Shown: positions 3,455 to 48,925 of the stretch, one piece after another | Layout of the letters: each line of letters starts with the position of its first letter | Position numbering within the stretch: position 1 is the stretch's first letter | DNA from: Methanobacteriota archaeon | GTDB taxonomy: Archaea; Thermoplasmatota; SW-10-69-26; JACQPN01 | Length of the DNA stretch: 64,000 bases | NCBI GenBank assembly: GCA_016207515.1 | Contig: JACQPN010000002.1 | Coordinates: 12,350-76,349, forward strand | Direction: 5' to 3' | Program-made: the position numbers and the translations under genes | The notes under the pieces: generated by a model | Seen by the model: only the letters and a program-made list of their open reading frames with translations | What the model was told of the DNA's origin: nothing | Database searches by the model: none

Positions 3455-5107
3455 TCACGGACACTTCACAAATGGGAAAAGTTCTCTCGACGAAGCAGGC
3501 ATGCCGGGTTCGCCACATGCATCGTTTGAGGCCTCGCTAAGGCCCACCACGTTTCTAGCCCTTACATGGTGGTAGAATACGTTATCTGGCGTAAATGTAA
3601 GATCAAAGGAAATGGCTCCGGCGTTGCTATTGGTTGCTATCAGGCTCGTGTTGTACGTTGTTATGGAAGGCCCAACGCTCCCGATGAGGATCTCATTTCC
3701 GTCACCTCCGATTCGATAAATCCGGTAGCCCAGGAGACCCACGCCTCCCGTGGCATTTGGGGCCGCCCAGGATAGGGTGATTTGAGAAATGCTTGTCGAC
3801 GCCAAGGCTGGCCCTTGTCCAAATGCGACGGGCGTTGCCGTCAAGTTCCATGGTTCTGAGGGCCGAACTGGTGCGACACCGTGGACCGTGGTTCCTGGCC
3901 CTGTCCCCTCCAAAGTGACCGCTCGCACCTCATAGTAATTCGACTCGCCATCGCCCAAATCCTTGTCGCGGTAGGACAACGTGGTGCCGATATCCGCGAG
4001 AAGCGTCATCGCGTCCGGCGAGGAGCCTCGAAAGATGTGGTAGCCGGTGATTGCATGATTGTGACGGAGGGGCTCCTGCCAGGAGAGACTGACTTCCCCT
4101 CGACCAGAGCCTGTTTTCGCAGACAGATTTCCCACGGGATCCAAAGCCTGGTTTGCGGGATCGTACACAACGATATCCCTCAGGCGTTGGTACGCGTCGT
4201 TCCCACCAATTACATATGCGACGCCGTCGCCCCAAACCGCGCTCGTTAGGTCCACGGCGCGTGGCAAACGATCATTCGTCAAGCTGACGAGTCCGGTACT
4301 TGGATCGAACCGCAACACGTCCCACAAATGTGACCCTGTGCCATTCCCTCCGAAAACCAATGCCTCCGTTCCCGTCCACACGCCGCTAATGTGCCGGCGA
4401 CCAGAGGGAAGGTGGCTCGACAAACGTTCAACAGCGCCACTCGATGGTTCGAACCTGATGATTGTTGCCACGGGCCCAATCGCGTCTTGGCCGCCAAGCA
4501 TGTACGCGTATTGACCGTCCCAAACCGTTGCTCCGAAATCGTTCCCCTCGGGCAAGGTTGACGAGAGTGTGACGACCGTGCTGGTATCCGGGTCGTACCT
4601 CAGTATCGTAGGTTGCGGAACTCCGCCAACGTGGCCACCTAGGAGGTAGATGTATTGCCCATCCCAAAAAGCGCCCGCGCCGTAGGTCCGATTAGGAAGG
4701 CGAATGGGCACGAGAGTCAGAGAATCGGTCACTGGGTCGTACTGGAATATCTCGTCAAGAGGTCGGCCAAGCGTGGGCCCGTAGCCGCCAAGCACGAAGA
4801 TTTTTGAACCAGCGGTCACCACTGCAGGATACTCTATGCTGAATGGCAAATTGGTGGCCGTTGCACTCAAGCACCCGGGCGGCTCGAAATACCATATTCG
4901 CTGCATGATGCCACCGAAAACGTACGCGCGGCCGTCGAACCAAGCGGCCCCCGTTGCATCGTTCGGTAGCGGTAATTGGCATTCAGACAGAACCGTCGAG
5001 TCCGCTTTGCCGGTGGGCACAATCGCAAACGCGGCCTGGGCCACGACTATTACGACTATCCAAGTCGCTTGACGCATCCGTTTGGATTTCAAAGACGCCC
5101 CCTTCAC
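3455..5107 (-). CDS. secreted Kelch-repeat beta-propeller protein with two fibronectin type III-like domains
   Basis: 550 aa; N-terminal signal-like hydrophobic segment; repeated Kelch-like blades (..VFGG.., ..LLGG.., ..MLGG.., ..VIGG..) followed by two FN3-like segments. Confidence 0.78.
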   Translation of the reverse strand: MKGASLKSKRMRQATWIVVIVVAQAAFAIVPTGKADSTVLSECQLPLPNDATGAAWFDGRAYVFGGIMQRIWYFEPPGCLSATATNLPFSIEYPAVVTAGSKIFVLGGYGPTLGRPLDEIFQYDPVTDSLTLVPIRLPNRTYGAGAFWDGQYIYLLGGHVGGVPQPTILRYDPDTSTVVTLSSTLPEGNDFGATVWDGQYAYMLGGQDAIGPVATIIRFEPSSGAVERLSSHLPSGRRHISGVWTGTEALVFGGNGTGSHLWDVLRFDPSTGLVSLTNDRLPRAVDLTSAVWGDGVAYVIGGNDAYQRLRDIVVYDPANQALDPVGNLSAKTGSGRGEVSLSWQEPLRHNHAITGYHIFRGSSPDAMTLLADIGTTLSYRDKDLGDGESNYYEVRAVTLEGTGPGTTVHGVAPVRPSEPWNLTATPVAFGQGPALASTSISQITLSWAAPNATGGVGLLGYRIYRIGGDGNEILIGSVGPSITTYNTSLIATNSNAGAISFDLTFTPDNVFYHHVRARNVVGLSEASNDACGEPGMPASSRELFPFVKCP

Positions 5108-20559: not shown

Positions 20560-20796
20560 ATGGACAATGGGCCGGGCACTTCAGTACCTTCGGACGACGC
20601 GGAACCCCTGAAGGAAGTCAAAGTCAAGATTCCGCTCGAATACCACGTGAAACTACACTCGATGAAGGTGCTCACGGGTCAACAGATCAGTGACACGATA
20701 ACCGACGCGCTGAGATCCTATTTCTTGAAACGCGACGGGCCGCAGAAACTTGAGCACGCGGAGCCGTCGGAGCTGCTTGACGGCGTCACTGGGTAA
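20560..20796 (+). CDS. small hypothetical protein, possible ribbon-helix-helix regulator
   Basis: ORF 20551..20796; TATA-like tgtataaataacc at ~20500; beta-strand then helix pattern (VKVKIPLEYHVKLHSMKVLTGQQISDTITDALRSYF). Confidence 0.4.
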   Translation: MDNGPGTSVPSDDAEPLKEVKVKIPLEYHVKLHSMKVLTGQQISDTITDALRSYFLKRDGPQKLEHAEPSELLDGVTG

Positions 20797-20868
20797 GCGG
20801 TACAAGTCTTCCGGTCATTCCGTCGCGGACTCCGTTTTTTCGCCCGTTATTCTCGTAGCTTCCGCGCC

Positions 20869-21885
20869 CTAGGGAGGCCCGGACTCCGGCCAAGGCGCCG
20901 AGCGGAACAGGCTCGTCTTCTGGACGCACAGATTCGCCTTGTCCCCTCCCGTCTGGTTCGCCCCGAAGTGGTGGTTCCAGAAGTTCATGCGCCCGTCGAG
21001 GGTCCGCGAACAGAAGGTGCTCTCCCCGAAGACCCCGTACTCGGCGTTCTTCACGAGGTTGTTCGTGTTCACCCTCACGCCGTCGGAGAAGAGCTCCGCC
21101 CGCACGCCGATGCGGTTCATGTAGAACGTGTTGTTGATCACGCTCGCGTTCGTCGCCCCCGAGTCGAGGAACGCTCCGATGTCGCTTCCCGACACGTTGT
21201 TGCGGTAGATGACGCTAGAGCCCGCCGATGCGAGGTGGATGCCCCATGTCCGGCTTCCGTTGATGCGGTTGGCCTCGATGACTATCGATGCGGGCGGCGG
21301 GAAACCCCCCACGCGGACACCGGTCGCATAACCGCTGATGTTGTTGCCGGAGACGATGAACGTCCCGGGCGTGCTCACGATGTCGATCCCGCGCAGGTCG
21401 ACGGTGCAGCCGGGGCACACGAACGCGTTATCGTTGATAGTGACGTTCGTCGCGTTCGCGTAGACGAGGAGCCCCTGTGTCATCGCGTTGTTGCCGACGA
21501 TCCGGTTCTCTTGGACGACGAAATGCTCGCGGGTCCCGTAGAATTGGATGGCCGCGGCGAACCGGCATCCCGTGGCCGGCGTGTCGAGCGGGTAACCGTC
21601 CGTTATCGTCCACAACGCGACGATGTACGGCAGATCCTCTGTGCCGTCACCGGCAACGATGCCGTACTTCTCCAAGCGTTCGAGCGGCGTCTTCGAGGAG
21701 AGGTCTTCGTACACGCAAATGGGCGCATGCGTCGAGATCGTCACGCCGAGGGGCGCCGCCTCCGCGTGGGGACCCGCGCCCCCGACGAGTAGTATCGTCA
21801 CAATGCCGAGAAGCGTCGGAACGGCCGTCTCTCGCACGCGATACGCATGCGTCGCGGACGGTTCAACGTTCGCGCGGCAGAGCAT
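20869..21885 (-). CDS. secreted right-handed parallel beta-helix repeat protein (NosD/pectin-lyase-fold like)
   Basis: 338 aa; N-terminal signal-like segment; repeated N-x-[IV]-x-G-N/N-N-x-x-G motifs typical of beta-helix repeats. Confidence 0.78.
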   Translation of the reverse strand: MLCRANVEPSATHAYRVRETAVPTLLGIVTILLVGGAGPHAEAAPLGVTISTHAPICVYEDLSSKTPLERLEKYGIVAGDGTEDLPYIVALWTITDGYPLDTPATGCRFAAAIQFYGTREHFVVQENRIVGNNAMTQGLLVYANATNVTINDNAFVCPGCTVDLRGIDIVSTPGTFIVSGNNISGYATGVRVGGFPPPASIVIEANRINGSRTWGIHLASAGSSVIYRNNVSGSDIGAFLDSGATNASVINNTFYMNRIGVRAELFSDGVRVNTNNLVKNAEYGVFGESTFCSRTLDGRMNFWNHHFGANQTGGDKANLCVQKTSLFRSAPWPESGPP

Positions 21886-22002
21886 ATCCTCTCTCTAAAG
21901 GAACGGCGTCCGTCGTACCAAGGGACAGCAGACGCGCCCGGTCCAGTACGGTAGCCGGGTCCTATGGAACACCGGCGCCTATCGAACGCCCAGGCCGCTT
22001 TC

Positions 22003-25000
22003 TCACGTCATGTCGTAGTGCGTAGTGCCGGCGCCTTCCGGCGAAACGTAGAACGCCTTGACCACGTTCTGCCCTGCTTGCGGCCGCAGGGGAAGCGTCG
22101 GTGGACTGAGGTTGCTTCCCACTATCCACCCGTTGAGCGAGATCAAGTGCCACCCGGGCAAGTACAGGCCTGCGCCGGCACCGGTATCCACGTCAAAGCC
22201 CACCGTGAACGTCGCGCGGCCGCCAGCGTCGGTCGTAAGGTCGAGTTTCAAGTCGGTGCGGGCCGTGAGCGGTGGCATGCCCGTCTCGACCACCGGGACG
22301 GTCCTGACGGCCCCAGTATAGGATACGTCGAACACGAGCGCCTCGCCTTCGACGGGCACTCCGTCGATGAAGACGACGCTCACGTTGCCCGTGACGGGCT
22401 TCGTGGGGTCGTTGAAACTGTCCGAGCGTCCCTCATCGTACGTCTCGAAGGGCGGCACCGGGACGATGCCGACCGTCGACGCCACGACGCCGACCTCCGC
22501 GTCCTGATCGAGGATTATCGTGTACGTCTTCTGCAAAGCGATCCGCAAGGGGTCCACTTCGACGGAGCGCGTCGCGAGGCCCATTTGGTAGCGCGCGACG
22601 ACGAACGTGCCGCCGGGGTTTATCGTGAGCCTTACTTCCAGCATGTCGTTGGCGCCCCACTCCCCGATGCCGAACGAGGCGTTCGCCCAACCGTCCGCCG
22701 TCACTGCGATCTCCGAATCGCCCGTCGAAAGCGTCGCTCCGGTCGAAAGGTCAACGTAGGCGAGCGCATACACGCTCGAGGTGAGGTTGAACGGCCTATC
22801 GCCGGGCGAGTGCACGAGGCGAAGCTCCACATCAAAGTTCGTCCCGCCGTAGACGCGGATCGTCTTTGAAACGGTCGAGGTCGCCCCACCCGTATCCGTG
22901 ACCCGGAGGCTCACCACGTAACTCGCCGACAGGGTGTAGGCGTGGCTCGGGCTCTGAGCCGTAGAGTTCGACCCGTCGCCGAAGTCCCACAGGTACTGGA
23001 GCGGCAGGTTCTCGGGGTCCGTCGAGGCGTCGATGAACTGGACGGCGACGTTCTCCACGGGTTGGACCGTCGCTACCGTGAAGTCGGCGGTCGGGAGCCC
23101 GTTGGCGACCGATACCGCGTGGACGATGACCGTCGAACCGCCGTCGTTGTCCGTGGCGGTCAGCGTGACATTGTAGGTGCCGATCGCGGAGAACGAGTAG
23201 TTGACGTCCGGCCCCGACGCGGTCCCGTTCGCGTCCCCGAAGTCCCAATCGAGGGTCACGACACTTCCATCGACGTCGAGTGCGGTCGAGTGGAACTCGA
23301 CCACCTGGGCCGCGATGGGAGAACCGGGGTTGAAGTTGAAATCCGCGCTCGGCGGCGCGTTGACCCGTATCGTCGTGTTCGTCGTCGACGAGCCGCCCGA
23401 ATTGTCGGTGACCGACAAGGTGACCGTGAACTGGCCGGCCGACGCAAACGAGTGGTTGACGATCGCGCCGCTGTCCGTCGTCGGCGTGTCGCTGAAGGCC
23501 CAAAGGCGCGCGACGATGCTGCCGTCCGGATCGGTGGAGGTGTCGGTGAAGAAGACCGTCTCGCCGATCTGCGGCACAGTCGGCCCGTACGTGAAGCTCG
23601 CGACCGGTAGCCGGTTTCGCACCGTGATGCTCGCGGAGGCGGAGGCGGACGCGCCCAGGTCGTCGGTCACCGTGAGGGTCACGACGTACACGCCCGGGTT
23701 CACGTAGGCGTGCGTGGTGTTGCGGATCGTGGAGTTGCTGGCGTCCCCGAAGTTCCAAAACCACGATACGATGGTCCCGTCGGGGTCAGAGCCCGTCGCG
23801 TTCATGTAGACGGTCTCGAAGGTGAGGACGTTGGCGGAGTTCGCCGTCCATTGCGCCGACGGCGGCCTGTTCACGGCGACTATCTTCGTCACGGAGCCCG
23901 TCGCACCGTCGTCATCGGTGACCGTGAGTGTGACCGAGTAGGCTCCCGAGCCGGGAAACGTATGGGACGGGTTCGCGTCGGTGCTTGTCGGGAGCGTGTC
24001 ACCGAAGTTCCAGAGATAAGAGACTACGACGCCGTCCGGATCCGAGGCTAGCTCCGTGAAGTTGACAGGTTCGCCGCGCCTTGCGACCGCGGGCGACCAT
24101 GAGAAGTCCGACACGGGGCCCCGGTTGAGGACCTGCAAGTTCACAAGGGCCGTGTTCGAGTAGCCGTCATCGTCGGTCACGGTGAGGCTGACGGTGTAGT
24201 TGCCGGAGTTCGCGTACGAATGCGTGGGGTTCGATGCGGCGGAGCCGTTCCCGTCGCCGAAGTCCCAAAGGAGCGACACGATGACGCCGTCTGCGTCCGT
24301 GGACGTGTCGTTGAACTGGATCGTCTGGCTAGTGAAGGGCACTGTGGGCGTGCGGGTGAAGCTTGCAAGCGGTGCCTGGTTGCCGACGTACATGCGCGTC
24401 TGCGTCGTGTTCGTTGCGCCATCGTCGTCGGTCACCGTGACGCTCACCGTGTAGTTGCCGTCGTCTGCGAACGAGTGGATCGGGGCTTGTACGGCGGACG
24501 TGTTCCCGTCGCCGAAATCCCAGAACCGGGTGACGATCGTCCCATCCATGTCGGTGGACGTATCGGAGAATTGGACCGGGCTCAGGTCGACTGGGAACGG
24601 AGGCGTGAAGGCAAACGACGCGACTGGAGCCCGGTTCAGGATAGTGATGTTCAGGGTCGTGGAATTGGAGAGAAGCGTGTTGTCCGTGTCGGTGAGGGTG
24701 ACTGTGTAGACGCCGTCGTCGACGTACTGGTGTTTGACCGTTATTCCGAGGGTCCCGCTGAGGTCCGTGTGCGTCGCGTGAACGATGGTGACCGGCTCGT
24801 TGTAGGCTGGGTCGTTGGCGCCGGGGTTCTGGAGATTGGCGTTGAGGTGCCCGTCGCCGAAATCGAAGCGGGAAAGGACGATGACGCCGTCGTCGGTGGA
24901 AAGGTCCGTGAACCTGATGTTGGTGAAAGTGTAGACGCCGAAGAACGGGGAGGCCTGGAGGAGCATCGTGGGCGGAGGGAATGATACGCATGTCTGCGGG

Positions 25001-26154
25001 TCGTTCTCGTCCACACAAAGGGGGCCTCCGAGGAGCGTCTGGTTGTGGCCAGCACCGGCACCCTGGGGGGAAACGATCTGGCGCGCGTATCCGTCGAGTG
25101 AGAGCCGCGCTTCGCGGGGGCCCACCTTGAAATAGGTCAGGACGCCGACGAAATCGGACACCGCGAATACGTTGTCCACTTTTCCCCACGATTCATACCA
25201 AACGCTGAGGTCGAAGTTGTTCTCGTCGAAGCTGATCGTGACGTTTCCGGTGGTCTCATTGTTGAACTGTCGCGTTTCCTGCGTCGTCGGCGTGAACTGG
25301 ATAAGCCCGATGGGCTGGTCCATGTAAGTGTAAGAATCGAGCGGCTTGCCATCCACTACGACCGCCGAGACGGGGATGTTCTTCGTGACATCGCCGCCGA
25401 TTGTCCTCTCTGTCTGGAGCCTCGCGAACCCGCCGGGGTTGAGTTCCACACCCGTCACTTTCTGGCTGTCGACGATGACGAAGGCGATCTTCGTGGTCTC
25501 CTCGTCCAAAGCACCCTTCGCGTCGGCCAACGAGTCGAGCGACTGCTTCGCATGTGCCTTGTTGTTCGTCGAGACTTGCTTCAGGTCCGACTCCGCGAAC
25601 ATCGCACTGTGCATGGTCCCGTCGAGATGGAGTTCCGCGCGCGTGGTGCCCGCGTTCGAGACACCATACTTGCCTTCGAAGTGGCGTAGCGTGATCACGT
25701 CCATCGGCGTGAGTTTCAGTTCGCGGTCCCCGACGAAGAGGCGCGCGTTGTCGCCGCTTTTGGTCCCGACCTTGAAGATCAGTTTATCGACTTTGCCCGT
25801 CCCCCAGAAATCGGATTCGATCTTCGCGCCGTTCAATTCCGCGAAAAGCACGGAGACGCCGCCATACGCGTCTCCGCCTGGACCTTGCGCCGTGTAGACG
25901 CGAAGGTCCGTCGGGACGCTCGAGACGTCGATCCCTGTCTCGCCGCCGGCGAACTGCGAGTAGGTGGCGGTGAACTGGGAAAAGAGCAGGCTGCCGATGA
26001 CGACCATGATGGCCAAAAGTTGCTTTATCAGCAAACTGGCCGCCTCCGCCCGTTCCCTCTTTCCAATCCTGCCCGCTCCTTCGACCTGCCGCTTAAGAGT
26101 GCCATGGGGACGGTCGATAGATAACCGGTTCTGCGTCACTCCAGTTGGGAACAA
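22003..26154 (-). CDS. giant cell-surface protein with ~8 tandem PKD domains
   Basis: 1383-aa ORF; ~8 repeats of the PKD signature W[DN]FGDG...H.[YF]...G; N-terminal hydrophobic signal-like segment (true start probably near 26007). Confidence 0.85.
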   Translation of the reverse strand: MFPTGVTQNRLSIDRPHGTLKRQVEGAGRIGKRERAEAASLLIKQLLAIMVVIGSLLFSQFTATYSQFAGGETGIDVSSVPTDLRVYTAQGPGGDAYGGVSVLFAELNGAKIESDFWGTGKVDKLIFKVGTKSGDNARLFVGDRELKLTPMDVITLRHFEGKYGVSNAGTTRAELHLDGTMHSAMFAESDLKQVSTNNKAHAKQSLDSLADAKGALDEETTKIAFVIVDSQKVTGVELNPGGFARLQTERTIGGDVTKNIPVSAVVVDGKPLDSYTYMDQPIGLIQFTPTTQETRQFNNETTGNVTISFDENNFDLSVWYESWGKVDNVFAVSDFVGVLTYFKVGPREARLSLDGYARQIVSPQGAGAGHNQTLLGGPLCVDENDPQTCVSFPPPTMLLQASPFFGVYTFTNIRFTDLSTDDGVIVLSRFDFGDGHLNANLQNPGANDPAYNEPVTIVHATHTDLSGTLGITVKHQYVDDGVYTVTLTDTDNTLLSNSTTLNITILNRAPVASFAFTPPFPVDLSPVQFSDTSTDMDGTIVTRFWDFGDGNTSAVQAPIHSFADDGNYTVSVTVTDDDGATNTTQTRMYVGNQAPLASFTRTPTVPFTSQTIQFNDTSTDADGVIVSLLWDFGDGNGSAASNPTHSYANSGNYTVSLTVTDDDGYSNTALVNLQVLNRGPVSDFSWSPAVARRGEPVNFTELASDPDGVVVSYLWNFGDTLPTSTDANPSHTFPGSGAYSVTLTVTDDDGATGSVTKIVAVNRPPSAQWTANSANVLTFETVYMNATGSDPDGTIVSWFWNFGDASNSTIRNTTHAYVNPGVYVVTLTVTDDLGASASASASITVRNRLPVASFTYGPTVPQIGETVFFTDTSTDPDGSIVARLWAFSDTPTTDSGAIVNHSFASAGQFTVTLSVTDNSGGSSTTNTTIRVNAPPSADFNFNPGSPIAAQVVEFHSTALDVDGSVVTLDWDFGDANGTASGPDVNYSFSAIGTYNVTLTATDNDGGSTVIVHAVSVANGLPTADFTVATVQPVENVAVQFIDASTDPENLPLQYLWDFGDGSNSTAQSPSHAYTLSASYVVSLRVTDTGGATSTVSKTIRVYGGTNFDVELRLVHSPGDRPFNLTSSVYALAYVDLSTGATLSTGDSEIAVTADGWANASFGIGEWGANDMLEVRLTINPGGTFVVARYQMGLATRSVEVDPLRIALQKTYTIILDQDAEVGVVASTVGIVPVPPFETYDEGRSDSFNDPTKPVTGNVSVVFIDGVPVEGEALVFDVSYTGAVRTVPVVETGMPPLTARTDLKLDLTTDAGGRATFTVGFDVDTGAGAGLYLPGWHLISLNGWIVGSNLSPPTLPLRPQAGQNVVKAFYVSPEGAGTTHYDMT

Positions 26155-26274
26155 GCGAGCGTCCCTGGCCGGTCCGGCCGGGCGCGGGGAACACCCGGGA
26201 CGCGGGCTTGGGTTAATACGTACCGACGAGACGTTGGCGCATCACGCGTGGGATGCGCGGCCGAGCCCCCATTG

Positions 26275-27021
26275 CTACGGTCGCATCTTCTTGGCCGCCG
26301 AAGTCTGGCGCACCCTTTCGTAGAGAAGGACGGCAGCCGCGTTCGAAACGTTCAGGGATCCGACGTGGCCGCTCATCGGGATGTAGACGGTGAGATCGCA
26401 GAGTTCCTCCGAAAGCCGTCCCATGCCGCTGCCTTCGCTTCCGAGAACCAGCGCGAGGGGCCCGGTAAGGCGCTCTTCGAAGTAGGGTCTCTTCCCGTGG
26501 ACGGCCACACCCGCGATCCAGACTTCGTGGCGTTTCAGTTGGCGTAACGCGGTCGGCACGGATGATGTTGTAGATACAAGTACGTACTCGGTGGCGCCGG
26601 CGCTCGATTTCACGACCGTGGGCGTAAGCCCCGCGGCGCCGCGTTCGGGGATGATCACCCCGTGGGCGCCCGCGCCCTCGGCGCTTCGGATGACGGCGCC
26701 GAGGTTGTGGGGGTCTTCGACACCGTCGAGGACGACGATGAGCGGGTCCTCGCCGCGTTGCTTTGCCCGCGCAAGGATGTCCTCGATGGAGACGGTGCCT
26801 CGCGGCTCGCAGTAGGCGAGGACCCCTTGGTGGACGCCGCCGAACTCCTCATCCAGTTTGCGGCGGCTCGCGGGTATGACGTCTATTCCCCGCTCTGCGG
26901 CGAGGCCGAGGATCTCCTCGCTTCCCCGAGTCTCGCGAGCGAGCAGTATCCGTCGGATGGAGCGGCCACTTTTCAACGCCTCCTTCACCGGGTTCACGCC
27001 CGCCACGATCTCGAGGGACAT
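26275..27021 (-). CDS. SpoU/TrmH-family RNA 2'-O-methyltransferase (RlmB-like)
   Basis: 248 aa; SPOUT motifs (VVLDGVEDPHNLGAVIRSAEGAG, LVLGSEGSGM, SLNVSNAAAVLLYE). Confidence 0.9.
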   Translation of the reverse strand: MSLEIVAGVNPVKEALKSGRSIRRILLARETRGSEEILGLAAERGIDVIPASRRKLDEEFGGVHQGVLAYCEPRGTVSIEDILARAKQRGEDPLIVVLDGVEDPHNLGAVIRSAEGAGAHGVIIPERGAAGLTPTVVKSSAGATEYVLVSTTSSVPTALRQLKRHEVWIAGVAVHGKRPYFEERLTGPLALVLGSEGSGMGRLSEELCDLTVYIPMSGHVGSLNVSNAAAVLLYERVRQTSAAKKMRP

Positions 27022-28892: not shown

Positions 28893-30878
28893 CTACTTCC
28901 CACCGTTCTTGTCCACACTCGGGCCCCCGAGCGATAGCCCGCCCGTCTGCCTGACGTACATGATCTTCGAAAGGCGCGCGGTGCCGCCTGCCGAGCCGTC
29001 CACGTATGCCATGTGGATGAGGCCGTCCTTGTCGGCCTGTATCTGGAAGAAGTCGAGGAGGTTACGTGCGTTTCCGCACGCACTCCCGCGCATGCAGACA
29101 GGCCCGTACTGGATGAGTTCGGGGCTTGCCGCGGATTCGACCCACGTCGCGTCGTCGTCCAACCCGTTCTCGGTGATCGCGAGAATCGTGTACCACTCGC
29201 CGAGCACTTTCTCCGGGTGTCCGACGAAGGCCGTACCATAGAAGGAGAGCGCGACCTTGCCGGCAGCCCCAGCGGTGAGCCACGGGAGAAGGTAGGTCCC
29301 CGGGTTGTTGTTCACTTTCTGCGGCGGCGACCACGTGGCGCCCTTGTCCGACGAGTGGGATATCCAGATGCTCAGGCCGCCGTTCGAATCCGTCTCGTCG
29401 CTCCACGCCGTGTAGACGTTACCGCCCGCGTCGGCCGTTACGACGGTGAAGATGTGGCAGGGGAAGCAAAACGACGTGTTCGTCTCGCCGTTACGCTTCG
29501 CGACGTTATGCCACACGAACGTCTTTCCCATGTCCGTCGACGTCGCAACCCCGGGGCCGTCGTCGTTGCATCCTGCAAGATAGAGCGTGCCGTCGGGGGC
29601 CCGTGCCAGATTGCCTCTGAAACAATCGTCTTCGGGGATGATGGTCCGGCCGGAGAACGTCTTTCCCCCGTCGAAAGAGTGTGTCACCGTCGCTCCGTCG
29701 CGTCCGTTGAAGCCGAGCCACACGTGGTCCGCCCCGTCGACGACGAGCCATTGGCGATCCGCCGAGTAGGGCGCTCCGATCGGGAGGCCGGGCGCGGCGA
29801 CTGGCAGCGCGGGCGGGGAAACGGGGTAGAACGAGGCCGGGTTCGGCTGCGCCGGGTACTGCGCTCCACCGGGGTTCGTGAACCAAGTCTTTCCGCCGTC
29901 GTGGCTTGAGGAAACGGTCTCGCCGCTTCCCCCTTGCTGGTCAGAGAAATAGATGGTGTCCTCGCCGGTGACCGCTACGTCGGAGTCGCCGCCGCCAACC
30001 GTGTATATGCTACCGGGATCGGAGAGCGCGCCCATCTGGTCGCTTCGGACATCGTGGTGGATCTTGATCCGCGTGAAACTCATGCCGCCATCCATCGACT
30101 GCCACAACGATTCTTGGGGACCCGTGGGCGCGGCGACGTAGATCGTGCCCTTGGGGCTCACCGCGATCGAAGGCTCGCCGGTGCGTTTTTCGGCATCGAC
30201 AAGGACCGGCGTCCCGAATTGGAGAGGCGCCTGTGTCCCGACCGGGACGGGAGAGCCCAAGATGGGCAGGGTGACGTTTCGTAGCGTGAGGCGCGCGGCG
30301 AAATCCACGGGGACGGCGTCGCCGATCCGTGAGATGGCGCTCACGCGGAGGCGCCAGTCACGCACTTCGGAACGATCCCCGTAAAGTGTCGCCCAGCATT
30401 CGCCGGCCCGTGCATTCCGGCCGATCGACGGCGCGCCGCACCAGGTCGTCCCGGACTCGTTGAGGACCCGGAAGCCTAGCGTCGCGGCACCGTCCATCCA
30501 CGTGAGGTTTCCTTGGACGATGGTCACGTCCGGGGGAAGGGTGAAGTCGAGGTCGACGTAGTTCAACGGGTCATCCGGTAGCCTTGGTTTCGAAACGCTC
30601 GAAGGGATCGGGACGGGAAGCGGGACCGGGGTCGGCCCAGTGTCCGGCCGCCAGATCGCGGCCGGTGGCGTCACCTTGCCGCTCCAGACGAGTACGACGG
30701 AGTCGCCGACGACCGAGATCTGTGCCCCGACGGCCTCGACGACGGGGGCGAGGTTCACGGGTAGCGACGTGTCCGTGGGCGTCATGGAACTTGTCGGCGA
30801 GACGCAGCCCGCGAGGCTCACGCCAAGAAGCGGCAAAACGATCGCAAGCGTGGACAGTCCCCGGACGTTCTTCCCCAT
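28893..30878 (-). CDS. secreted lipoprotein with BNR/Asp-box repeats (sialidase-like beta-propeller)
   Basis: Signal peptide plus lipobox (LAGC); four Asp-boxes (SHDGGKTW, SFDGGKTF, STDMGKTF, SSDKGATW); start at ATG 30878. Confidence 0.8.
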   Translation of the reverse strand: MGKNVRGLSTLAIVLPLLGVSLAGCVSPTSSMTPTDTSLPVNLAPVVEAVGAQISVVGDSVVLVWSGKVTPPAAIWRPDTGPTPVPLPVPIPSSVSKPRLPDDPLNYVDLDFTLPPDVTIVQGNLTWMDGAATLGFRVLNESGTTWCGAPSIGRNARAGECWATLYGDRSEVRDWRLRVSAISRIGDAVPVDFAARLTLRNVTLPILGSPVPVGTQAPLQFGTPVLVDAEKRTGEPSIAVSPKGTIYVAAPTGPQESLWQSMDGGMSFTRIKIHHDVRSDQMGALSDPGSIYTVGGGDSDVAVTGEDTIYFSDQQGGSGETVSSSHDGGKTWFTNPGGAQYPAQPNPASFYPVSPPALPVAAPGLPIGAPYSADRQWLVVDGADHVWLGFNGRDGATVTHSFDGGKTFSGRTIIPEDDCFRGNLARAPDGTLYLAGCNDDGPGVATSTDMGKTFVWHNVAKRNGETNTSFCFPCHIFTVVTADAGGNVYTAWSDETDSNGGLSIWISHSSDKGATWSPPQKVNNNPGTYLLPWLTAGAAGKVALSFYGTAFVGHPEKVLGEWYTILAITENGLDDDATWVESAASPELIQYGPVCMRGSACGNARNLLDFFQIQADKDGLIHMAYVDGSAGGTARLSKIMYVRQTGGLSLGGPSVDKNGGK

Positions 30879-31040
30879 GGTACGCCTCTTCAAGAGAAGA
30901 GCCGTTGGAGCCTTATCATTGTTCATGTATGAGGGTTGGTCAATCGAAGGCAAGAAAGGGCCTGGGCGCAGAGAATCCGTTGCTGTGACGTGATCCTCTG
31001 GCAATCGGGGCGTGCTCTACCCGACGATCTCCGGCCTTCT

Positions 31041-32645: not shown

Positions 32646-33494
32646 GTGAACCAAATGACCGACCGCGTTCTCTTCGCCGTAGCGGCAATGGCCATCGTCC
32701 TTTCGGGCACCGTGAGCGCCGGCACCGAAAAGGCGCCCGAGCTCGTGGACGCTGCCATGGACACGGCCCGGCCCGACGAATCGCAATCCACGGACATCAT
32801 CGCGGGCTGGATCGAGAAGGAGGAAGAGGCGTCGTTCACGACCGTCATCAAGGTCCAGACGCTCGACTTGAACCTCGCGGCTGTGACCGGTTTCTCATTC
32901 GCGTTCAAGTACCGCGGCCTCGACTACGCGACGTCGGCCTTCCTCATCCCGGGCTCGCCCCCCGACTTCTCCTACGGTCACTGGGACGAGGATGCGGGCT
33001 TCACCTACGATTCGAACGCGACCACAGGCACGGTCACCGCCGGGTCCCCCGGCTACGTACGCGTCGTGTTCAAGAAGGACCACTTCACGTCGGAGCCCCA
33101 CGGCAACGCCGCTGCGGTCGCCTACAAGGACCCGCCGACCATCGAGAAGATCGCGGTGACGACGATCGACGGCAAGGCCTTCACGCCTCTCATCCTGCTC
33201 TTCCTCGTGAACGTCGACCCCTTTAGCGTCGCGCCGGCCCTTAGCTCGCCTCCGCCGGCGCTTTACAATTCAGACTCCGCCACCGCCACGAAGAACTACG
33301 TGATGACGCTCGGGGTCCCCGACGCGCCCGTCGTCGAGCCCTTGCTGGCCATCGAGCCGTTGAACGCGTCTGGCCATACCGAGCCGCTCTCCGATGATGC
33401 GACGGCGCCGCCGGTCGCCAATACGCCGGGCCCAGAGGCCTGGATGCTCGCGGCGGCGCTATCGGCGGCCATTGTCATAAGGCGTCGCCGGTAG
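32646..33494 (+). CDS. secreted protein with C-terminal membrane anchor (PGF-CTERM-like sorting signal)
   Basis: N-terminal signal peptide; C-terminus TPGPEAWMLAAALSAAIVIRRRR (Pro-Gly motif, hydrophobic helix, Arg cluster). Confidence 0.6.
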   Translation: MNQMTDRVLFAVAAMAIVLSGTVSAGTEKAPELVDAAMDTARPDESQSTDIIAGWIEKEEEASFTTVIKVQTLDLNLAAVTGFSFAFKYRGLDYATSAFLIPGSPPDFSYGHWDEDAGFTYDSNATTGTVTAGSPGYVRVVFKKDHFTSEPHGNAAAVAYKDPPTIEKIAVTTIDGKAFTPLILLFLVNVDPFSVAPALSSPPPALYNSDSATATKNYVMTLGVPDAPVVEPLLAIEPLNASGHTEPLSDDATAPPVANTPGPEAWMLAAALSAAIVIRRRR

Positions 33495-38832: not shown

Positions 38833-40073
38833 TGCACTTGCTGGGCGAGGCCTGGTTCTCGTGGGTCTCCTTCGTGGTCGCCGATGTGATCCTCGTTGCG
38901 CTCGGCATTCTCGTGCTCCGGCTCAAGCCGCGGACGCCGGCGAGCTGGGCTCTTGGCGTCTTCGCGACCGCCTGGGGAGCCAACTTCATCGTGGCGCTCG
39001 CGCCGTTCTTCTTCGACATCGACCTTTCGAGGCCAGGGTATCTGGAGGGTCAAACCCTTCTTCGCGTCGTCCTGAGAGCCATCTCCGCCGGCGGCCTCGT
39101 GGCGATGATGCTGACCTTCCCGCGGGCCCTGCCGCGAGCCGAGCGCCGCGCCCTCGTCGGGCCCGCGATCTTTGGCGCGGTCTGGGCGTTTGTGCTCATC
39201 GCCCCGCGATGGGCGATCCCACCGTGGGCGCTCCTCGACGTGGGAACCGCGATTGTCGGGTACGGGTTCGTCTGGGCGTACCTGCTGCTTCTCACGTCCC
39301 GGTGGCGGCGCGCGACCGACGCGGGCGAACGGCACCAGATCGTGCTCACGTTCGTGGCGCTCGCGCTGGGCGTCAGTTTCCAAGCGGGACAATACGCGGG
39401 AGGCGCGAGCCAGCTCGCTTCGTCAGGCGTCCTGACGTTCGTGACCCAGCTTGCCCCACCCGTCTGGCTTGCGGTCGTCTGGCTCCGGGGGGCCCACGGG
39501 GCGCAAGCGCGCGTCGAGCGGAATCTCGCCATCCTCCCGCTCGCGCTCGCGTTCGTGGGATTCCTCGTGGGGAGGAGGAGCCCCTACGATCCCTCGGGCC
39601 TCCTCGCCCTTGGCACCGTCGCGATCCTCACCTATGCGATCGTGCGTCACCAAGTCCTCGGCATCGACGTCAAGCTCCGCTTCGCCATCAGCAAGTCCAC
39701 GGTCGCGGCCGTGTTCATCGCGGTTTTCTTCGTCGCGAGCGAAGCGGCGCAGCAGTTCTTCGGCGAAGCGTTCCAATCCAATTACGTGGGCATCCTGGCG
39801 GCGGGTGCTCTCGTGTTCGCGATCGCGCCGTTGTCGCGCCTCGCGGACCGGATCGCGGAGAAGGCGGTGCCGGTTCCCACGGCACCTCCGGAGCCCACGG
39901 GGCTACCTTTTCGCGAAAAGCTCTACCGGGATGCAGCGCGCTACGCGCTCCGAGACGGCACGATGACACGCATCGAGGAGTTGCATCTTGCCCAGCTTGC
40001 CGCCGAGCTCGGGCTGCGCGCGGATCGGGCGGTCGAACTGCGCCATGAGATCGAGGAGGAGATGAGGGCGTGA
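38832..40073 (+). CDS. array member C: polytopic membrane protein with conserved C-terminal module
   Basis: ATG overlapping B2 stop (ATGA); module ISKSTVAAVFIAVFFVASEAAQQFFGEAFQSNYVGILAAGALVFAIAPLSRLADRIAEKAVP plus tail YRDAARYALRDGTMTRIEELHLAQLAAELGL. Confidence 0.8.
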   Translation: MHLLGEAWFSWVSFVVADVILVALGILVLRLKPRTPASWALGVFATAWGANFIVALAPFFFDIDLSRPGYLEGQTLLRVVLRAISAGGLVAMMLTFPRALPRAERRALVGPAIFGAVWAFVLIAPRWAIPPWALLDVGTAIVGYGFVWAYLLLLTSRWRRATDAGERHQIVLTFVALALGVSFQAGQYAGGASQLASSGVLTFVTQLAPPVWLAVVWLRGAHGAQARVERNLAILPLALAFVGFLVGRRSPYDPSGLLALGTVAILTYAIVRHQVLGIDVKLRFAISKSTVAAVFIAVFFVASEAAQQFFGEAFQSNYVGILAAGALVFAIAPLSRLADRIAEKAVPVPTAPPEPTGLPFREKLYRDAARYALRDGTMTRIEELHLAQLAAELGLRADRAVELRHEIEEEMRA

Positions 40074-41356
40074 TCGTTTTCCACACGGAGTGGGACGCGA
40101 TCGTGAACGCGATTACGGCCGCGATCCTCGCGGGGTTCGGAGCCTGGATCTGGGCGCTTCGGCCGCGGACCCGACTCACCCGTATGCTCGCGCTCTTTGC
40201 CGTCGCGCACGGCGTTCTCTACACGTACATCAACTTGGTCGAGGTCCTCCCTGTGGGAGGCCCCGCTTGGATCGCGGATACGCTCCTCCGGGGCGCGCTC
40301 TTCGGGGCCGCCGCGTGGGGTCTGCTCGCGATGGGACGCGAAGTCCTGCGGCCTCTCGGCCCCGGGAGCGATCGTCTCTGGAAGGTCGCCGTCGCGACCG
40401 TCGGGATTCTCGCGGTCGTAATCACGGGCCCGGTGCTTTTTGGCCTCCCCGATTCCTCCCCTCTCGCCTGGGTCGCGATCGCCGCCGAGCTTTTCGGCCT
40501 CGCAACGTTCATTCTCGGATTCACCGCCCTTCCGGTCGTGTTTGTGTGGCTCTACCGGCAGCCCCTCGGGGAGGACGTTGAGCGGACGAGGCGCAACGCC
40601 ATCGTGATGAGCAACGCGCTCGTCCTCTGGCCGGCGCTCTATGGGATTGAGGCCGCGATCGGGGGCGGTATCGGCGGATACCTAGTTCTCATCGGTGTGG
40701 TCGCGCTCGGGCTCCTCTGGCTGGCCAACATCGGAGTCGATCCCCGGACAGCCCGCGAGGCTCGCGACGCGGCGCTTCTCGCCTTCGCCCTGCTCCTCAT
40801 CGGAACCGTCGACAGACTGATCCTCTCCGACGCGCTCGGCTACTCTCGCGCAGAGGGCCCGTTCTATGGAATCGCGCGCCTCCTGACGGTCGTCGCGCTC
40901 TCCTACGCCGTCCTGAAGCACTCCGTGCTCGGCTTCGACGTGAACCTACGCTTTGCAATCAGCAAGTCCACCATCGCCGCCGTCTTCGTCGCCGTCTTCT
41001 TCGTCGCGAGCGAAGCGGCGCAGCAGTTCTTCGGTGAAGCGTTCCAGTCGAGCTACGTGGGCATCCTGACGGCGGGTGCGCTCGTGTTCGCGATCGCGCC
41101 GTTGTCGCGGCTTGCGGACAGGATCGCTGAGAAGGCGGTGCCGATCGCGGAGGGCCGTCCCGCCGCCACGACGGCGAAGGAGGAAGCGTACAAACGCGCG
41201 TTGCGCATCGCGCTGCGGGACCGCAAGCTCACGCGCGAGGAGGACATCCACGTGCACGAGCTCGCGGAGCACCTCGGCATCGGCGCAGGCCGAGCGATGG
41301 CATTGCGTGTAGAGATTGAACGCGAATTGGCCGCATCGACCGGAGGCGGGACTTGA
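40070..41356 (+). CDS. array member D: polytopic membrane protein with conserved C-terminal module
   Basis: GTG overlapping C stop (GTGA); C-terminal module nearly identical to C and E2 at protein and DNA level. Confidence 0.8.
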   Translation: MIVFHTEWDAIVNAITAAILAGFGAWIWALRPRTRLTRMLALFAVAHGVLYTYINLVEVLPVGGPAWIADTLLRGALFGAAAWGLLAMGREVLRPLGPGSDRLWKVAVATVGILAVVITGPVLFGLPDSSPLAWVAIAAELFGLATFILGFTALPVVFVWLYRQPLGEDVERTRRNAIVMSNALVLWPALYGIEAAIGGGIGGYLVLIGVVALGLLWLANIGVDPRTAREARDAALLAFALLLIGTVDRLILSDALGYSRAEGPFYGIARLLTVVALSYAVLKHSVLGFDVNLRFAISKSTIAAVFVAVFFVASEAAQQFFGEAFQSSYVGILTAGALVFAIAPLSRLADRIAEKAVPIAEGRPAATTAKEEAYKRALRIALRDRKLTREEDIHVHELAEHLGIGAGRAMALRVEIERELAASTGGGT

Positions 41357-41595
41357 CGATTCCGCTCGGCCGGATCCTCAACCTCGCCGGGAGCTCGGTG
41401 ATTGTGCTGCTCGGGCTCGCCGTCGCATTCCTTGGCCGAGGACGAGGTCCAGACCTTGGAGTGACTCGGTTCTCCATCGGCATCGGCGGGCTCGCTCTCG
41501 CGAAGCGCCACATGCGCGACCTTGTGGCCACCTGGGCGGGAGAGGACGCAACTGGTCGCGAAGCGGCGCCCGACTTGGAGGCGCGGTCCCCGTGA
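41353..41595 (+). CDS. array fragment E1: 80-aa ORF with family N-terminal TM motif
   Basis: TTG overlapping D stop; LAGSSVIVLLGLAVAFLGRGRG matches the family N-terminus; ends at TGA overlapping the GTG of E2. Confidence 0.4.
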   Translation: MTIPLGRILNLAGSSVIVLLGLAVAFLGRGRGPDLGVTRFSIGIGGLALAKRHMRDLVATWAGEDATGREAAPDLEARSP

Positions 41596-42932
41596 ATCTG
41601 CTCTCCGGGGCCCTCGTGCCCGCCTACGCCGGGACCCTCACAAACCTGCTCCTCGCTGCGGCTCTCCTCAGGTGGGGCCCAAGGCGGGGGGCATCGGTCT
41701 GGTTCGTCGCTTTCCTGGTCGCGGACGGCGTTGGCCTGGCGCTCAACGCAATCGAGAACCACGTCTTCCAGACCTTCGACGCCACCACGTCGAGCGCGTC
41801 AGAGATCGAAGCGACACGGGCGCTACTCACGGGGCTCGATGTCGCCGTGGGCGTTCTGCTCGTCTCTGCCCTGTTCCTGATCGTTTTCGCAACGATCGAA
41901 TTCTTGGGGCGCGCCCCGCGATGGCTGGCACCGGCGGTCCTCGCGACCGCGAGCACGGCGGCGCTCTGGGGGATTCTCGACCCTCCCGCAGGATACTTCC
42001 TCCGCGAGGGCCGCCTCATACACGTCGTCGACTCCTCCTATTTCTTCCTCACAACGCTTCCTGCCTTCGCAAGCCAAGGCGTCGCGCTTCTCGTGCTCGC
42101 GCGGCGACCAGCCGGCGATCCCAGCTCACCCACGCGCCGCTCTCACCTCCTCCTTGGCATCGGTCTCCTCGTGTATCCTCTTCATCGTGGCGCCTATCTT
42201 GTGGTGGACTACTTCCTCGACCCGCTGTCTGTAGCGCGAGTAACTGCCTCCAATCGGTTCGTCCTGCTCGGCGAGCTGGCGACCGCCGTGTTCCTCCTCT
42301 TCGCCGCCTACCTTGCCATCATGCGGCTTGCACGCACACATCCCGAGCACGCGGGCCTCGTTCTCGCGGCCGGCGTGGGCCTCGGCTCCGGGATACTGCG
42401 TGCCCTGACGGATGCGCTCCCGTCCTACTTCTATTTCGGCGTCGCGAACCTCGTGCTGCCGCTCGTCGCTACGTACGCGCTGCTCCGGCACAACCTGTTC
42501 GGTCTCGATTTCAGGGTTCGGTGGGCGATCTCGAAGTCCACGATCGCGGCGGTCTTCATCGCCGTCTTCTTTGTGGCGAGCGAGGCGGCGCAGCAGTTCT
42601 TCGGCGAAGCGTTCCAATCCAATTACGTTGGCATCCTGGCGGCGGGTGCTCTTGTGTTCGCGATCGCACCGTTGTCGCGGCTTGCGGACCGGCTCGCTGA
42701 GAAGGCGGTGCCGGTGGCCGCCGGAACCGGGCCCGTCGAGGCGAGCGCGTCCGACACGCGCGGAGCCGACGCGTACCGACACGCGGTGCGCTTGGCGCTT
42801 CGCGACCGGCGCCTCACGCCCGGTGAAGAGGTCGCTTTGGCGCACGTCGCGCAGGGTCTCGGACTCACGCCTGTTGAGGCCATTCGGCTCCGCCACGAGG
42901 TCGAGGCGGAGACCGGGAAGGAGGTGCGCTAA
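41592..42932 (+). CDS. array member E2: polytopic membrane protein with conserved C-terminal module
   Basis: In-frame part of ORF 41316..42932 starting at GTG 41592; C-terminal module identical over long stretches to C and D. Confidence 0.75.
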   Translation: MNLLSGALVPAYAGTLTNLLLAAALLRWGPRRGASVWFVAFLVADGVGLALNAIENHVFQTFDATTSSASEIEATRALLTGLDVAVGVLLVSALFLIVFATIEFLGRAPRWLAPAVLATASTAALWGILDPPAGYFLREGRLIHVVDSSYFFLTTLPAFASQGVALLVLARRPAGDPSSPTRRSHLLLGIGLLVYPLHRGAYLVVDYFLDPLSVARVTASNRFVLLGELATAVFLLFAAYLAIMRLARTHPEHAGLVLAAGVGLGSGILRALTDALPSYFYFGVANLVLPLVATYALLRHNLFGLDFRVRWAISKSTIAAVFIAVFFVASEAAQQFFGEAFQSNYVGILAAGALVFAIAPLSRLADRLAEKAVPVAAGTGPVEASASDTRGADAYRHAVRLALRDRRLTPGEEVALAHVAQGLGLTPVEAIRLRHEVEAETGKEVR

Positions 42933-42990
42933 ACTGGCTCTCGACGCGCGGTTCGTAATCACCGCAGGAAGCGGCGCGCTATGGGGCCTC

Positions 42991-47175: not shown

Positions 47176-47244
47176 TTCTTGGTTTCCCTTGTGCCTCACG
47201 AAGACCGCCGAATCTTATCTCGTTTATGGCAAGCGAGTATCGGG

Positions 47245-48621: not shown

Positions 48622-48925
48622 CAATCCGGGGAGGCGTAGACAGCCCCCCTCCTTATCGGTTCCGCCAACGACGGTCACAACAGGCCCGCCGGGATAGGGG
48701 CCACCGACGATTGCCACCCTCTTCCACGAGCCGGTCGCGCGGGGCGAGCGCGAGACGCGACGAAGGTCACCCGCCCCGAGACCTCTCGACCTCGTTCCCA
48801 GCACCGCAGTGGTCGACAGCTCACAAGCGCTTCCTCTCGATTGCCCGGCTTCGCCTCGCAGCGTGTGAACTCCGGCGGTAGCGCTTTAACGGATTGTTCT
48901 ACTACTGAGCTCAAGGATCCGGGGG

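Follow-up and report, generated by a model that had tools for sequence, protein, structure and literature searches.

PKD, β-helix, and β-propeller domains have been on record in archaeal surface-layer proteins since 2002 (Jing et al. 2002, Structure 10:1453, pmid 12377130; via PMC2447325), and archaeal S-layers are usually built from strings of Ig-like domains (PMC8640222; bioRxiv 10.1101/2024.05.28.596244). In the csg protein of Haloferax volcanii, six Ig-like domains are combined with a PGF-CTERM lipid anchor at the C terminus, an anchor processed by archaeosortase (PMC8640222). Secreted PKD-repeat and β-helix proteins are a long-known component of the archaeal cell surface, and the occurrence of such a pair in itself matters little. 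Here we describe two genes from a window of 64,000 nucleotides, the whole stretch of archaeal DNA that was analyzed, for which a sequence-only reading had proposed a surface-layer, adhesion, or glycan-processing role. The DNA belongs to a metagenome-assembled genome of an uncultured euryarchaeon with a probable relationship to Thermoplasmatota.

Like the surface-layer proteins of Methanosarcina mazei, as far as these are described in the source given above, the products are archaeal and predicted to be secreted, draw on PKD, right-handed β-helix, and β-propeller modules, and have a proposed cell-surface role. Unlike in the Methanosarcina proteins described there, the PKD array and the β-helix come from different genes, with no conserved adjacency between them, the propellers (Kelch and BNR) are encoded by other, distant genes, and the duplicated N-terminal domain and C-terminal MG-like domains are specific to the family of the large protein. 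A surface-layer protein of the Methanosarcina type was rejected, since the large protein has neither a propeller nor a β-helix domain and the β-helix is a gene of its own. The large protein resembles csg in its signal peptide, tandem Ig-like domains, acidic character, N-glycosylation sequons, and probable envelope role (PMC8640222); it differs in its domain number, about 12, and in having no anchor at the C terminus, and sequence homology to csg was not detected. Other β-rich proteins reported from the window were found as well, namely, a Kelch and fn3 protein (3455-5107) and two BNR lipoproteins (28893-31004 and 47245-48804) with lipoboxes LAGC and VSGC. In total, 5 of the window's roughly 55 genes code for putative extracellular β-rich proteins, and they are scattered among housekeeping genes, for example, those for MCM, thermosome, RFC, DRG, and NMD3.

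Architecture and family of the large PKD protein

The two minus-strand open reading frames are located where the sequence-only reading had placed them, but their lengths of 1,383 and 338 aa had to be revised to 1,343 and 322 aa on correction of the start codons (Table 1). A start of the large gene at 26154 (1,383 aa) was ruled out by the 84%-identical ortholog L071, where a 1-nt indel and an in-frame stop lie in that upstream stretch; the stop precedes by 10 codons an ATG that is homologous in position to TTG 26034. A GGAGG lies 8 nt upstream of this TTG, from which the protein begins MLIKQLLAIMVV..., in line with the N terminus MLQKILVV... of other family members; the homologous N terminus MLQKILVVLVGLVMS.. 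is common to all of them. The smaller gene most likely starts at GTG 21837, judging from the comparison with L071, where the ATG homologous to 21885 opens a frame of 15 codons and the GTG frame runs on. The same start was called by NCBI (P0001, "right-handed parallel beta-helix repeat-containing protein").

Table 1. Features of the two genes and their upstream regions (window positions)
Feature	Position	Strand	Description	Basis
Right-handed parallel β-helix protein gene	20869..21837	-	322 aa + stop; GTG start	ORF, Pfam, NCBI, L071
Conserved intergenic block AGAGGATATGCTCTnCCnCGCGAACGTTGAACCG	21859..21892	-	Upstream of β-helix gene; kept relative to L071, reading frame not	
Large PKD surface-protein gene	22003..26034	-	1,343 aa + stop; TTG start 26034	ORF, Pfam, L071 and family N termini
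C-terminal region of large protein	22006..22848	-	aa 1063-1343 (281 aa)	AF2, Foldseek, family alignment, hydropathy
Array of 8 PKD domains	22849..24975	-	aa 354-1062	Pfam, repeat period
N2 β-sandwich domain	25072..25449	-	~aa 196-321; tandem duplicate of N1	AF2, hhalign
N1 β-sandwich domain	25606..25911	-	~aa 42-143; pLDDT 70-89; no Pfam family	AF2
Signal peptide or possible signal anchor of large protein	25957..26034	-	~aa 1-26, MLIKQLLAIMVVIGSLLFSQFTATYS	Hydropathy
Conserved noncoding leader	26040..26155	-	Directly upstream of start codon; ends in GGAGG Shine-Dalgarno (26043-26047)	
20-bp imperfect palindrome TGTTCC-N8-GTGACG	26134..26153	-	Candidate regulator-binding site; conserved in family loci	

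The large protein carries the eight PKD domains that had been estimated from the sequence: eight stretches were matched both by PF18911 (396 bits, cutoff 27; E 3e-121) and by PF00801 (288.7 bits, cutoff 23.5; E 1e-87). The first domain has an insertion, and the others keep a period of 85 aa. Pairwise identity among the seven regular repeats is 24 to 58% at the protein level, with a mean of 39%, and no tandem repeat was found in the DNA of the array; by these measures, the repeats are old. Their low mutual identity, together with a copy number of 8 to 10 across a family of about 25% identity, also led us to reject a repeat-variable adhesin of the RTX or Bap type.

The array is flanked by β-sandwich domains on both sides. 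Homology between N1 and N2 was detected by hhalign (probability 99.1%, E 6e-19), and neither domain is matched by a Pfam model. An AlphaFold2 model of moderate confidence, for which the N and C regions were fused artificially and an alignment of only 19 full-length family members was used, is all-β, with a mean pLDDT of 65 and domain cores of 70 to 89; a single-sequence model of the N region was uninformative (pLDDT 31). The C-terminal region consists of two β-sandwich domains, the second MG-like, followed by a conserved FYVSPEG tail motif. The sequence-only reading would have failed had the domains resolved to intracellular folds, and none appeared: the best PDB matches for the N and C regions in Foldseek were MG, invasin, and Ig domains only, with low TM-scores of about 0.15. 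Searches of PDB sequences with the N region, the C region, or the β-helix protein gave no match at an E value of ≤1, and a profile search of the PDB with the family alignment gave a single nonsignificant match (E 0.23).

The top Foldseek matches for the C-terminal region, and the best structural matches overall, were MG domains of the bacterial α2-macroglobulins (ECAM and Salmonella A2M; PDB 5a42 and 4u48), which are strings of MG-type β-sandwiches, and a faint match to PF17789 (MG4) was seen below the Pfam threshold. The thioester motif (CGEQ), the bait region, and the TED and CUB domains of these proteins are absent from the large protein. Identity with α2-macroglobulin or complement C3 was rejected because the thioester is missing, no A2M Pfam domain scores above threshold, and there are only two cysteines, both within PLCVDENDPQTCV. 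The likeness extends no further than a generic β-sandwich.

N-terminal segments resembling signal peptides, as claimed for both proteins, were recognized by eye and hydropathy; that of the β-helix protein is predicted to be MRETAVPTLLGIVTILLVGGAGPHAEA. A class III (pilin-type) signal peptide was rejected by eye for the large protein, since the N terminus of the family, MLQK/ILVV, has no G, A, or S before the hydrophobic stretch. The N terminus holds the only hydrophobic segment detected by hydropathy in the large protein, and a Cys-containing lipobox is absent; the C-terminal region was searched by hydropathy and sequence for a transmembrane segment, PGF-CTERM, and lipobox, and none was found. 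The protein is acidic, with a pI of about 4.3. N-x-S/T sequons, proposed earlier as a check, are enriched in both proteins (25 versus 14.2 expected, z = 3.0, in the large one and 8 versus 3.7 in the small one) and in most family members, an excess that is in part inherent in the PKD consensus (GNYTV, YNVTL). No catalytic domain was matched in the large protein by Pfam, NCBIfam, or PDB-sequence searches.

An exhaustive HMMER search of 1.84 billion proteins yielded a family of 21 representatives, nearly all of 1,217 to 1,481 aa and with the N-domain at the same position. Every full-length member has 8 to 10 PKD domains and a C-terminal region of 234 to 301 aa, and the N and C regions can be aligned across the family. 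The family surfaced only in the exhaustive search; word-indexed searches with the N-terminal (aa 60 to 400) and C-terminal (aa 1100 to 1383) regions returned nothing, and a metagenome scan with the N region gave no match. In this window, the small family of fixed architecture is represented by the large protein as its ortholog. The family, with its duplicated N-terminal β-sandwich that has no Pfam model, is a by-product of value.

The β-helix protein

The claim of a right-handed β-helix in the small protein was borne out by matches above the cutoff to PF13229 (Beta_helix; 44.1 bits, cutoff 25.9), in two stretches at aa 172 to 291 of the 338-aa reading frame, and to PF05048 (NosD; 36.9 bits, cutoff 23.6). 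It thus passes the Pfam thresholds of the NosD and CASH-PbH1 proteins, with which it shares about seven PbH1-type coils, and is much shorter than NosD-containing systems. NosD identity was rejected: the score against the NosD family model TIGR04247 was 34.2 bits, far below the cutoff of 300, and Pfam scans of 30 other window proteins showed no nosZ, nosF, or nosY gene nearby. At the sequence level the protein is a near orphan, a homology search recovering only itself and one relative at 82% identity, and a metagenome scan gave no match. With one close relative detectable, its own gene context can be compared over a single 1.6-kb contig.

Gene order and possible roles

The sequence-only reading implied that the two proteins form a functional pair. 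We consider it probable instead that they are two separate extracellular proteins whose genes are neighbors because of a lineage-specific gene order and do not constitute a conserved functional unit. The large one would most likely be a conserved envelope or adhesive protein, probably N-glycosylated, and its neighbor an independent β-helix protein of the carbohydrate-binding type. Genes for a DUF2070 membrane protein and an acyltransferase border the large gene in five distant family loci; neither is present in the window. TrmB-family regulators precede this DUF2070-PKD protein-acyltransferase neighborhood, which is conserved in most relatives. None of the five, in all of which the downstream side is visible, has a β-helix gene beside the large gene, and tblastn detected no β-helix homolog within 10 kb; a sixth locus differs again on the upstream side, and only 184 bp of its contig follow the large gene. 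Conserved adjacency is thus missing, and the order seen in the window is common only to the 84%-identical relative. An operon acting together, in which the β-helix protein would, for example, assist the PKD protein by glycan processing or capping, could account for the shared strand, the gap of only 165 nt, the predicted secretion of both products, and the adjacency preserved in that relative. Shared gene order is, however, expected anyway at such a distance, and a contig scan with the neighboring DRG GTPase found only relatives of ≤60% identity that do not share the gene order. Also in keeping with an operon, no terminator site (hairpin plus T-run) was found in the gap, by a scan whose bacterial model is uninformative for an archaeon, as is that of the bacterial-type promoter scan. 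The adjacency missing from every distant locus with its downstream side visible, and a conserved noncoding block directly upstream of the β-helix gene that is compatible with a promoter or regulatory element of its own, make the operon improbable. Of the earlier proposal of a surface, adhesion, or glycan role, the extracellular, β-rich part is supported by the domain findings, and such a role is reasonable; the implied link between the two genes is not supported, given its absence from the distant loci.

Under the reading that we favor, of two separate proteins, the large one would be exported via the Sec pathway, would probably be N-glycosylated, and would have the shape, on the cell surface, of a long rod with about 12 Ig-like domains, serving as an envelope, spacer, or adhesive protein and not as an enzyme; its attachment to the membrane might come from a partner protein or from an N-terminal signal anchor that is not cleaved. 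The 322-aa protein would be an independently transcribed, secreted β-helix of the PbH1/CASH type with about seven coils, probably glycan binding or glycan modifying. That the large protein is instead the main S-layer lattice protein of the lineage, highly expressed, glycosylated, and self-assembling, with the leader described below serving mRNA stability or regulation, is possible but seems unlikely to us. The predicted N-terminal secretion signal and the tandem Ig-like and β-sandwich domains are those of known archaeal S-layer proteins (PMC8640222), and the fixed family architecture, the conserved genomic position in five distant members, the enriched sequons, the low pI, and the conserved leader and upstream motif all point the same way. 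Against it, a recognizable membrane anchor of the S-layer class (C-terminal transmembrane segment, PGF-CTERM, or lipobox) is lacking, although the same genome employs lipoboxes; 12 domains in a row are equally typical of fibrillar adhesins; the family is very small; and S-layers are missing from some Thermoplasmatota. A more far-reaching version, which we regard as doubtful, is that the large protein and its 20 relatives constitute, in an uncultured Thermoplasmatota-related clade, a so far unrecognized S-layer or main envelope protein, made of a duplicated β-sandwich, a PKD stalk of fixed length, and MG-like tips, controlled by the leader and an operator TGTTCC-N8-GTGACA, and coupled in most lineages to DUF2070 as a possible anchor. 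If these archaea do use the family as their envelope protein, it would open their cell-surface biology to study and assign a function to DUF2070; a search of the literature on DUF2070 or PKD S-layers in Thermoplasmatota found nothing relevant. PKD domains are also present in chitinases, collagenases, and proteases, and the β-helix fold of the PbH1/CASH superfamily is frequent in polysaccharide lyases and hydrolases. The large protein might then be a substrate-binding arm for polymer degradation, with the β-helix protein as an associated lyase or hydrolase, as the fold and weak, partial Pfam overlaps of the large reading frame with ChitinaseA_N and K319L-like PKD families could suggest. We regard this as very improbable: the large protein has no catalytic domain, the β-helix protein shows no catalytic motif by eye and no match to any solved enzyme sequence, and the surroundings are housekeeping genes, not a polysaccharide-utilization cluster.

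Leader and upstream motif of the large gene

The leader of the large gene is about 90% identical to that of L071 despite the 1-nt indel, and the remaining intergenic region has diverged. A structured RNA was considered and dropped, since Rfam contains no known RNA matching within 20700 to 26400 and the predicted fold is no more stable than those of shuffled sequences (z = +0.6). No second copy of the palindrome occurs in the 64-kb window, which thus gives no evidence for a regulon. In seven family loci the palindrome lies 83 to 119 nt upstream of the start codon with identical N8 spacing. The motif and leader, the corrected starts of both genes, and the conserved neighborhood of the relatives are by-products of value, and nothing else at the locus is as unexpected as the conserved 5′ leader and the 20-bp motif upstream.

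Gene starts and the upstream leader

Two co-oriented ORFs, a PKD-repeat gene and a beta-helix gene spanning positions 20869 to 26154, had been proposed from the sequence alone; both are present on the minus strand, and GC3 values of 0.84 to 0.87 mark them as real coding frames. ORFs of the proposed lengths, 1383 and 338 aa, do exist, but both starts had to be moved. L071, a JGI contig, encodes P0003, an ortholog 84% identical to the large PKD protein, and shares with the window a ~90% identical DNA block directly 5' of the sequence for the hydrophobic N-terminus. This block contains a 1-nt indel, and L071 has an in-frame stop 10 codons ahead of an ATG that aligns exactly with the window TTG at 26034. 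GGAGG lies 8 nt 5' of the start in both sequences, and the N-termini of other family members (MLQKILVV...) match MLIKQLLAIMVV... in the window protein. We conclude that the large protein has 1343 aa. L071 keeps the beta-helix gene's ATG at 21885, but the frame there ends after 15 codons; the frame opened by the GTG at 21837 runs on into signal-peptide-like sequence, and this GTG is also the NCBI start (P0001, 322 aa). With the corrected starts, the intergenic gap is 165 nt.

A conserved leader precedes the large gene; it has no Rfam match, and its predicted fold is not unusually stable. The motif TGTTCC-N8-GTKACR (also written TGTTCC-N8-GTGACA) occurs 83 to 119 nt 5' of the start at seven loci (the window, L071, and the relatives' loci L072, L073, L075, L077, and L079), which keep it although the family proteins are only ~25% identical. 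The leader and its palindrome may bind a regulator or act as a 5'-UTR element. Promoter and terminator scans were of bacterial type and thus uninformative for an archaeal host.

Coordinates of gene models, leader elements, membrane protein ORFs, and relatives' gene clusters
Feature	Position	Strand	Details
Large ORF as first called	22003-26154	minus	1383 aa from TTG
Large gene, corrected	22003-26034	minus	TTG start at 26034, 1343 aa
Beta-helix ORF as first called	20869-21885	minus	338 aa
Non-coding leader	26040-26155	minus	~115 nt; ~90% conserved with the 84% relative, L071
Imperfect palindrome	26134-26153	minus	20 bp; TGTTCC-N8-GTKACR
Multi-pass membrane protein ORF	40070-41356	plus	no Pfam match
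Multi-pass membrane protein ORF	42412-44166	plus	no Pfam match
Multi-pass membrane protein ORF	44167-45417	plus	no Pfam match
PKD-gene cluster	L072 7890-14882		
PKD-gene cluster	L073 8016-15361		
PKD-gene cluster	L075 5783-12573		
PKD-gene cluster	L077 6487-13377		
PKD-gene cluster	L079 7989-14849		

The PKD protein and its family

Pfam counts eight PKD domains in the large protein (PKD_4, E = 3e-121; PKD, E = 1e-87; eight stretches each), in line with the earlier estimate of about eight, and WDFGDG motifs recur at a spacing of 85 residues. The mean mutual identity of the seven repeats compared is 39%, and the array has no tandem repeat at the DNA level; it is old and of fixed length rather than an expanding adhesin repeat. 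Outside the array, no match was found in Pfam, NCBIfam, or PDB sequences. We searched 1.84 billion representatives exhaustively with HMMER, using the joined N and C regions that flank the array as the query, and found 21 proteins (20 at E ≤ 1e-10), nearly all of 1217 to 1481 aa with the N region in the same place; one, P0016, is encoded in GCA_035553595.1, labeled "Thermoplasmatota archaeon." Every full-length member has a signal peptide, an N region of ~300 aa, 8 to 10 PKD domains (counted with a profile made from the window's own repeats), and a C region of 234 to 301 aa. The end regions align family-wide at ~25% identity, and the alignment closes on a conserved F-V-D/E-P-x-G tail. These end domains, for which Pfam has no model, are family-specific. 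Two beta-sandwich copies within the N region, N1 and N2, are homologous (hhalign probability, 99.1%; E = 6e-19); the region is therefore an internal tandem duplication. In the C-terminal alignment columns, FVDPxG is followed in most members by a short tail that closes on ..xP, so that a conserved proline is the final residue; in the window protein and its close relative, the sequence closes on ..THYDMT in place of ..xP.

Modeled by AF2 from its single sequence, the N region reached a pLDDT of only 31. A better model, built from a 19-sequence family alignment whose first row was an artificial fusion of the window N and C regions, is all-beta, with a mean pLDDT of 65 and domain cores at 70 to 89. 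Foldseek against the PDB matched this model only to multi-beta-sandwich proteins: bacterial alpha-2-macroglobulins (E ~2e-5), MG domains of complement C3/C4/C5, the invasin-type adhesin InvE, and titin Ig domains; TM-scores were low (~0.15), as expected with several domains in the query. A faint Pfam MG4 match to the last domain was limited to 2 of the 19 members scanned (best E = 5.5e-5). We dismissed an alpha-2-macroglobulin identity, since the large protein contains just two cysteines and lacks a thioester motif. Together with the Pfam assignments of PKD and beta-helix domains, these matches bear out the extracellular-type folds proposed earlier; none resolved to an intracellular fold.

The large protein has no C-terminal transmembrane segment, PGF-CTERM-like tail, or lipobox. 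N-x-S/T sequons, earlier singled out for checking, are enriched (25 observed versus 14.2 expected; z = 3.0), partly through the PKD consensus itself, and most family members show an excess. A 282-aa protein without a Pfam match (32646-33494, plus strand) begins with a signal peptide and finishes in a PGPEAWMLAAALSAAIVIRRRR tail, in which a proline/glycine motif, a hydrophobic helix, and a basic end are reminiscent of an archaeosortase/exosortase-type sorting signal; no such tail is present on the large protein.

The beta-helix protein and gene neighborhoods

The right-handed beta-helix assignment of the smaller protein holds, with Beta_helix (44.1 bits; cutoff, 25.9) and NosD (36.9 bits; cutoff, 23.6) both above threshold in Pfam. 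Its putative signal peptide ends at AEA|A. It has ~7 PbH1-type coils and seven cysteines, some of them in a CPGC turn; its sequons number eight versus 3.7 expected. NosD family membership was rejected (34 bits versus a threshold of 300; no nearby nos genes). A PDB sequence search found no relative, and homology search detected just one close relative, P0002 (82% identity), from the same sample as L071. The CASH/PbH1 fold class comprises carbohydrate-binding proteins and sugar hydrolases; judged from fold class alone, the protein would bind or modify glycans.

A small plus-strand ORF (20560-20796; 78 aa from ATG) converges on the beta-helix gene. It has no Pfam match and is 96% identical to its counterpart in L070, versus 82 to 84% for its neighbors; by eye, its VKVKIPLEYHVKLHSMKVLTGQQISDTITDALRSYF stretch resembles a ribbon-helix-helix DNA-binding fold.

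The two genes have archaeal housekeeping genes as neighbors: DRG-type GTPase, SpoU methylase, PadR and RDD proteins, RFC large subunit, an AMP-phosphorylase-like enzyme, MCM, thermosome, and NMD3. Among GTDB species representatives, the DRG protein has its closest homologs, at only 56 to 60% identity, in MAGs labeled Thermoplasmatota, Halobacteriales, or Methanobacteriota.

Genomic contexts were retrieved for seven family members. L071 has the window's order: SpoU, the large gene, and then the beginning of the beta-helix gene. Five distant members (L072, L073, L075, L077/078, and L079/080) share one conserved neighborhood, unlike the window's: TrmB, two unknown genes, TrmB, two unknown genes, HTH_20, DUF2070 (a ~600-aa membrane protein), the large gene, and a PF01553 acyltransferase. 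This may be an uncharacterized cell-envelope gene cluster and may offer a lead to DUF2070 function. At L079, the one locus read, several unknown products have signal-peptide-like N-termini and a common EGHTVYVSLTVNT motif. The sixth distant member, L076, has another upstream context again, and its contig ends 184 bp past the large gene.

Possible roles and other surface proteins

We consider it fairly probable that the window encodes two independent extracellular proteins. The larger would form a rod of ~12 Ig-like domains, conserved and probably N-glycosylated, that serves as an envelope, spacer, or adhesive protein, and the smaller a secreted beta-helix that binds or modifies glycans. That the rod is specifically the S-layer protein of its lineage seems unlikely: the fixed family architecture, conserved genomic position in distant members, conserved leader, and acidic pI would suit this role, but the protein has no recognizable anchor. 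We regard an operon or partnership of the two co-oriented genes as improbable. None of the five distant loci has a beta-helix gene, and none of the distant loci's neighbor genes lies within the 64-kb window, so the adjacency is lineage-specific. A 34-nt block just 5' of the beta-helix gene (21859-21892), conserved in L071 where the reading frame is not, is compatible with a candidate independent promoter. A polymer-degradation model is more improbable still. Of the earlier proposal, the beta-rich, extracellular character is supported, but the implied functional pair is not.

Archaeal S-layers are usually built from strings of Ig-like domains (PMC8640222; bioRxiv 10.1101/2024.05.28.596244). The window proteins fit this known kind of surface protein, but differ in that their modules are split between two genes without conserved adjacency and in the family-specific end domains of the large protein. 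We also record the small family of fixed architecture, linked in most relatives to DUF2070 and the acyltransferase, and the conserved leader with its motif.

The other surface proteins noted earlier are all real: a Kelch+fn3 protein, which carries a signal peptide, and two BNR lipoproteins (lipoboxes LAGC and VSGC). Their genes are dispersed among housekeeping genes and form no cluster. Adjoining a BNR lipoprotein gene is 46294-47199 (minus strand), whose 301-aa product, without a Pfam match, has a FAGC lipobox followed by an acidic Thr/Gly/Pro-rich linker and is probably another surface lipoprotein. Three adjacent membrane protein ORFs (40070-45417) look like paralogs of an uncharacterized family; they have in common a conserved C-terminal tail, ..EE.. 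LAHL.DE.G......R.E..RE.., and lie in a region of raised GC (0.67 to 0.68) and strongly negative AT skew (38 to 44 kb).
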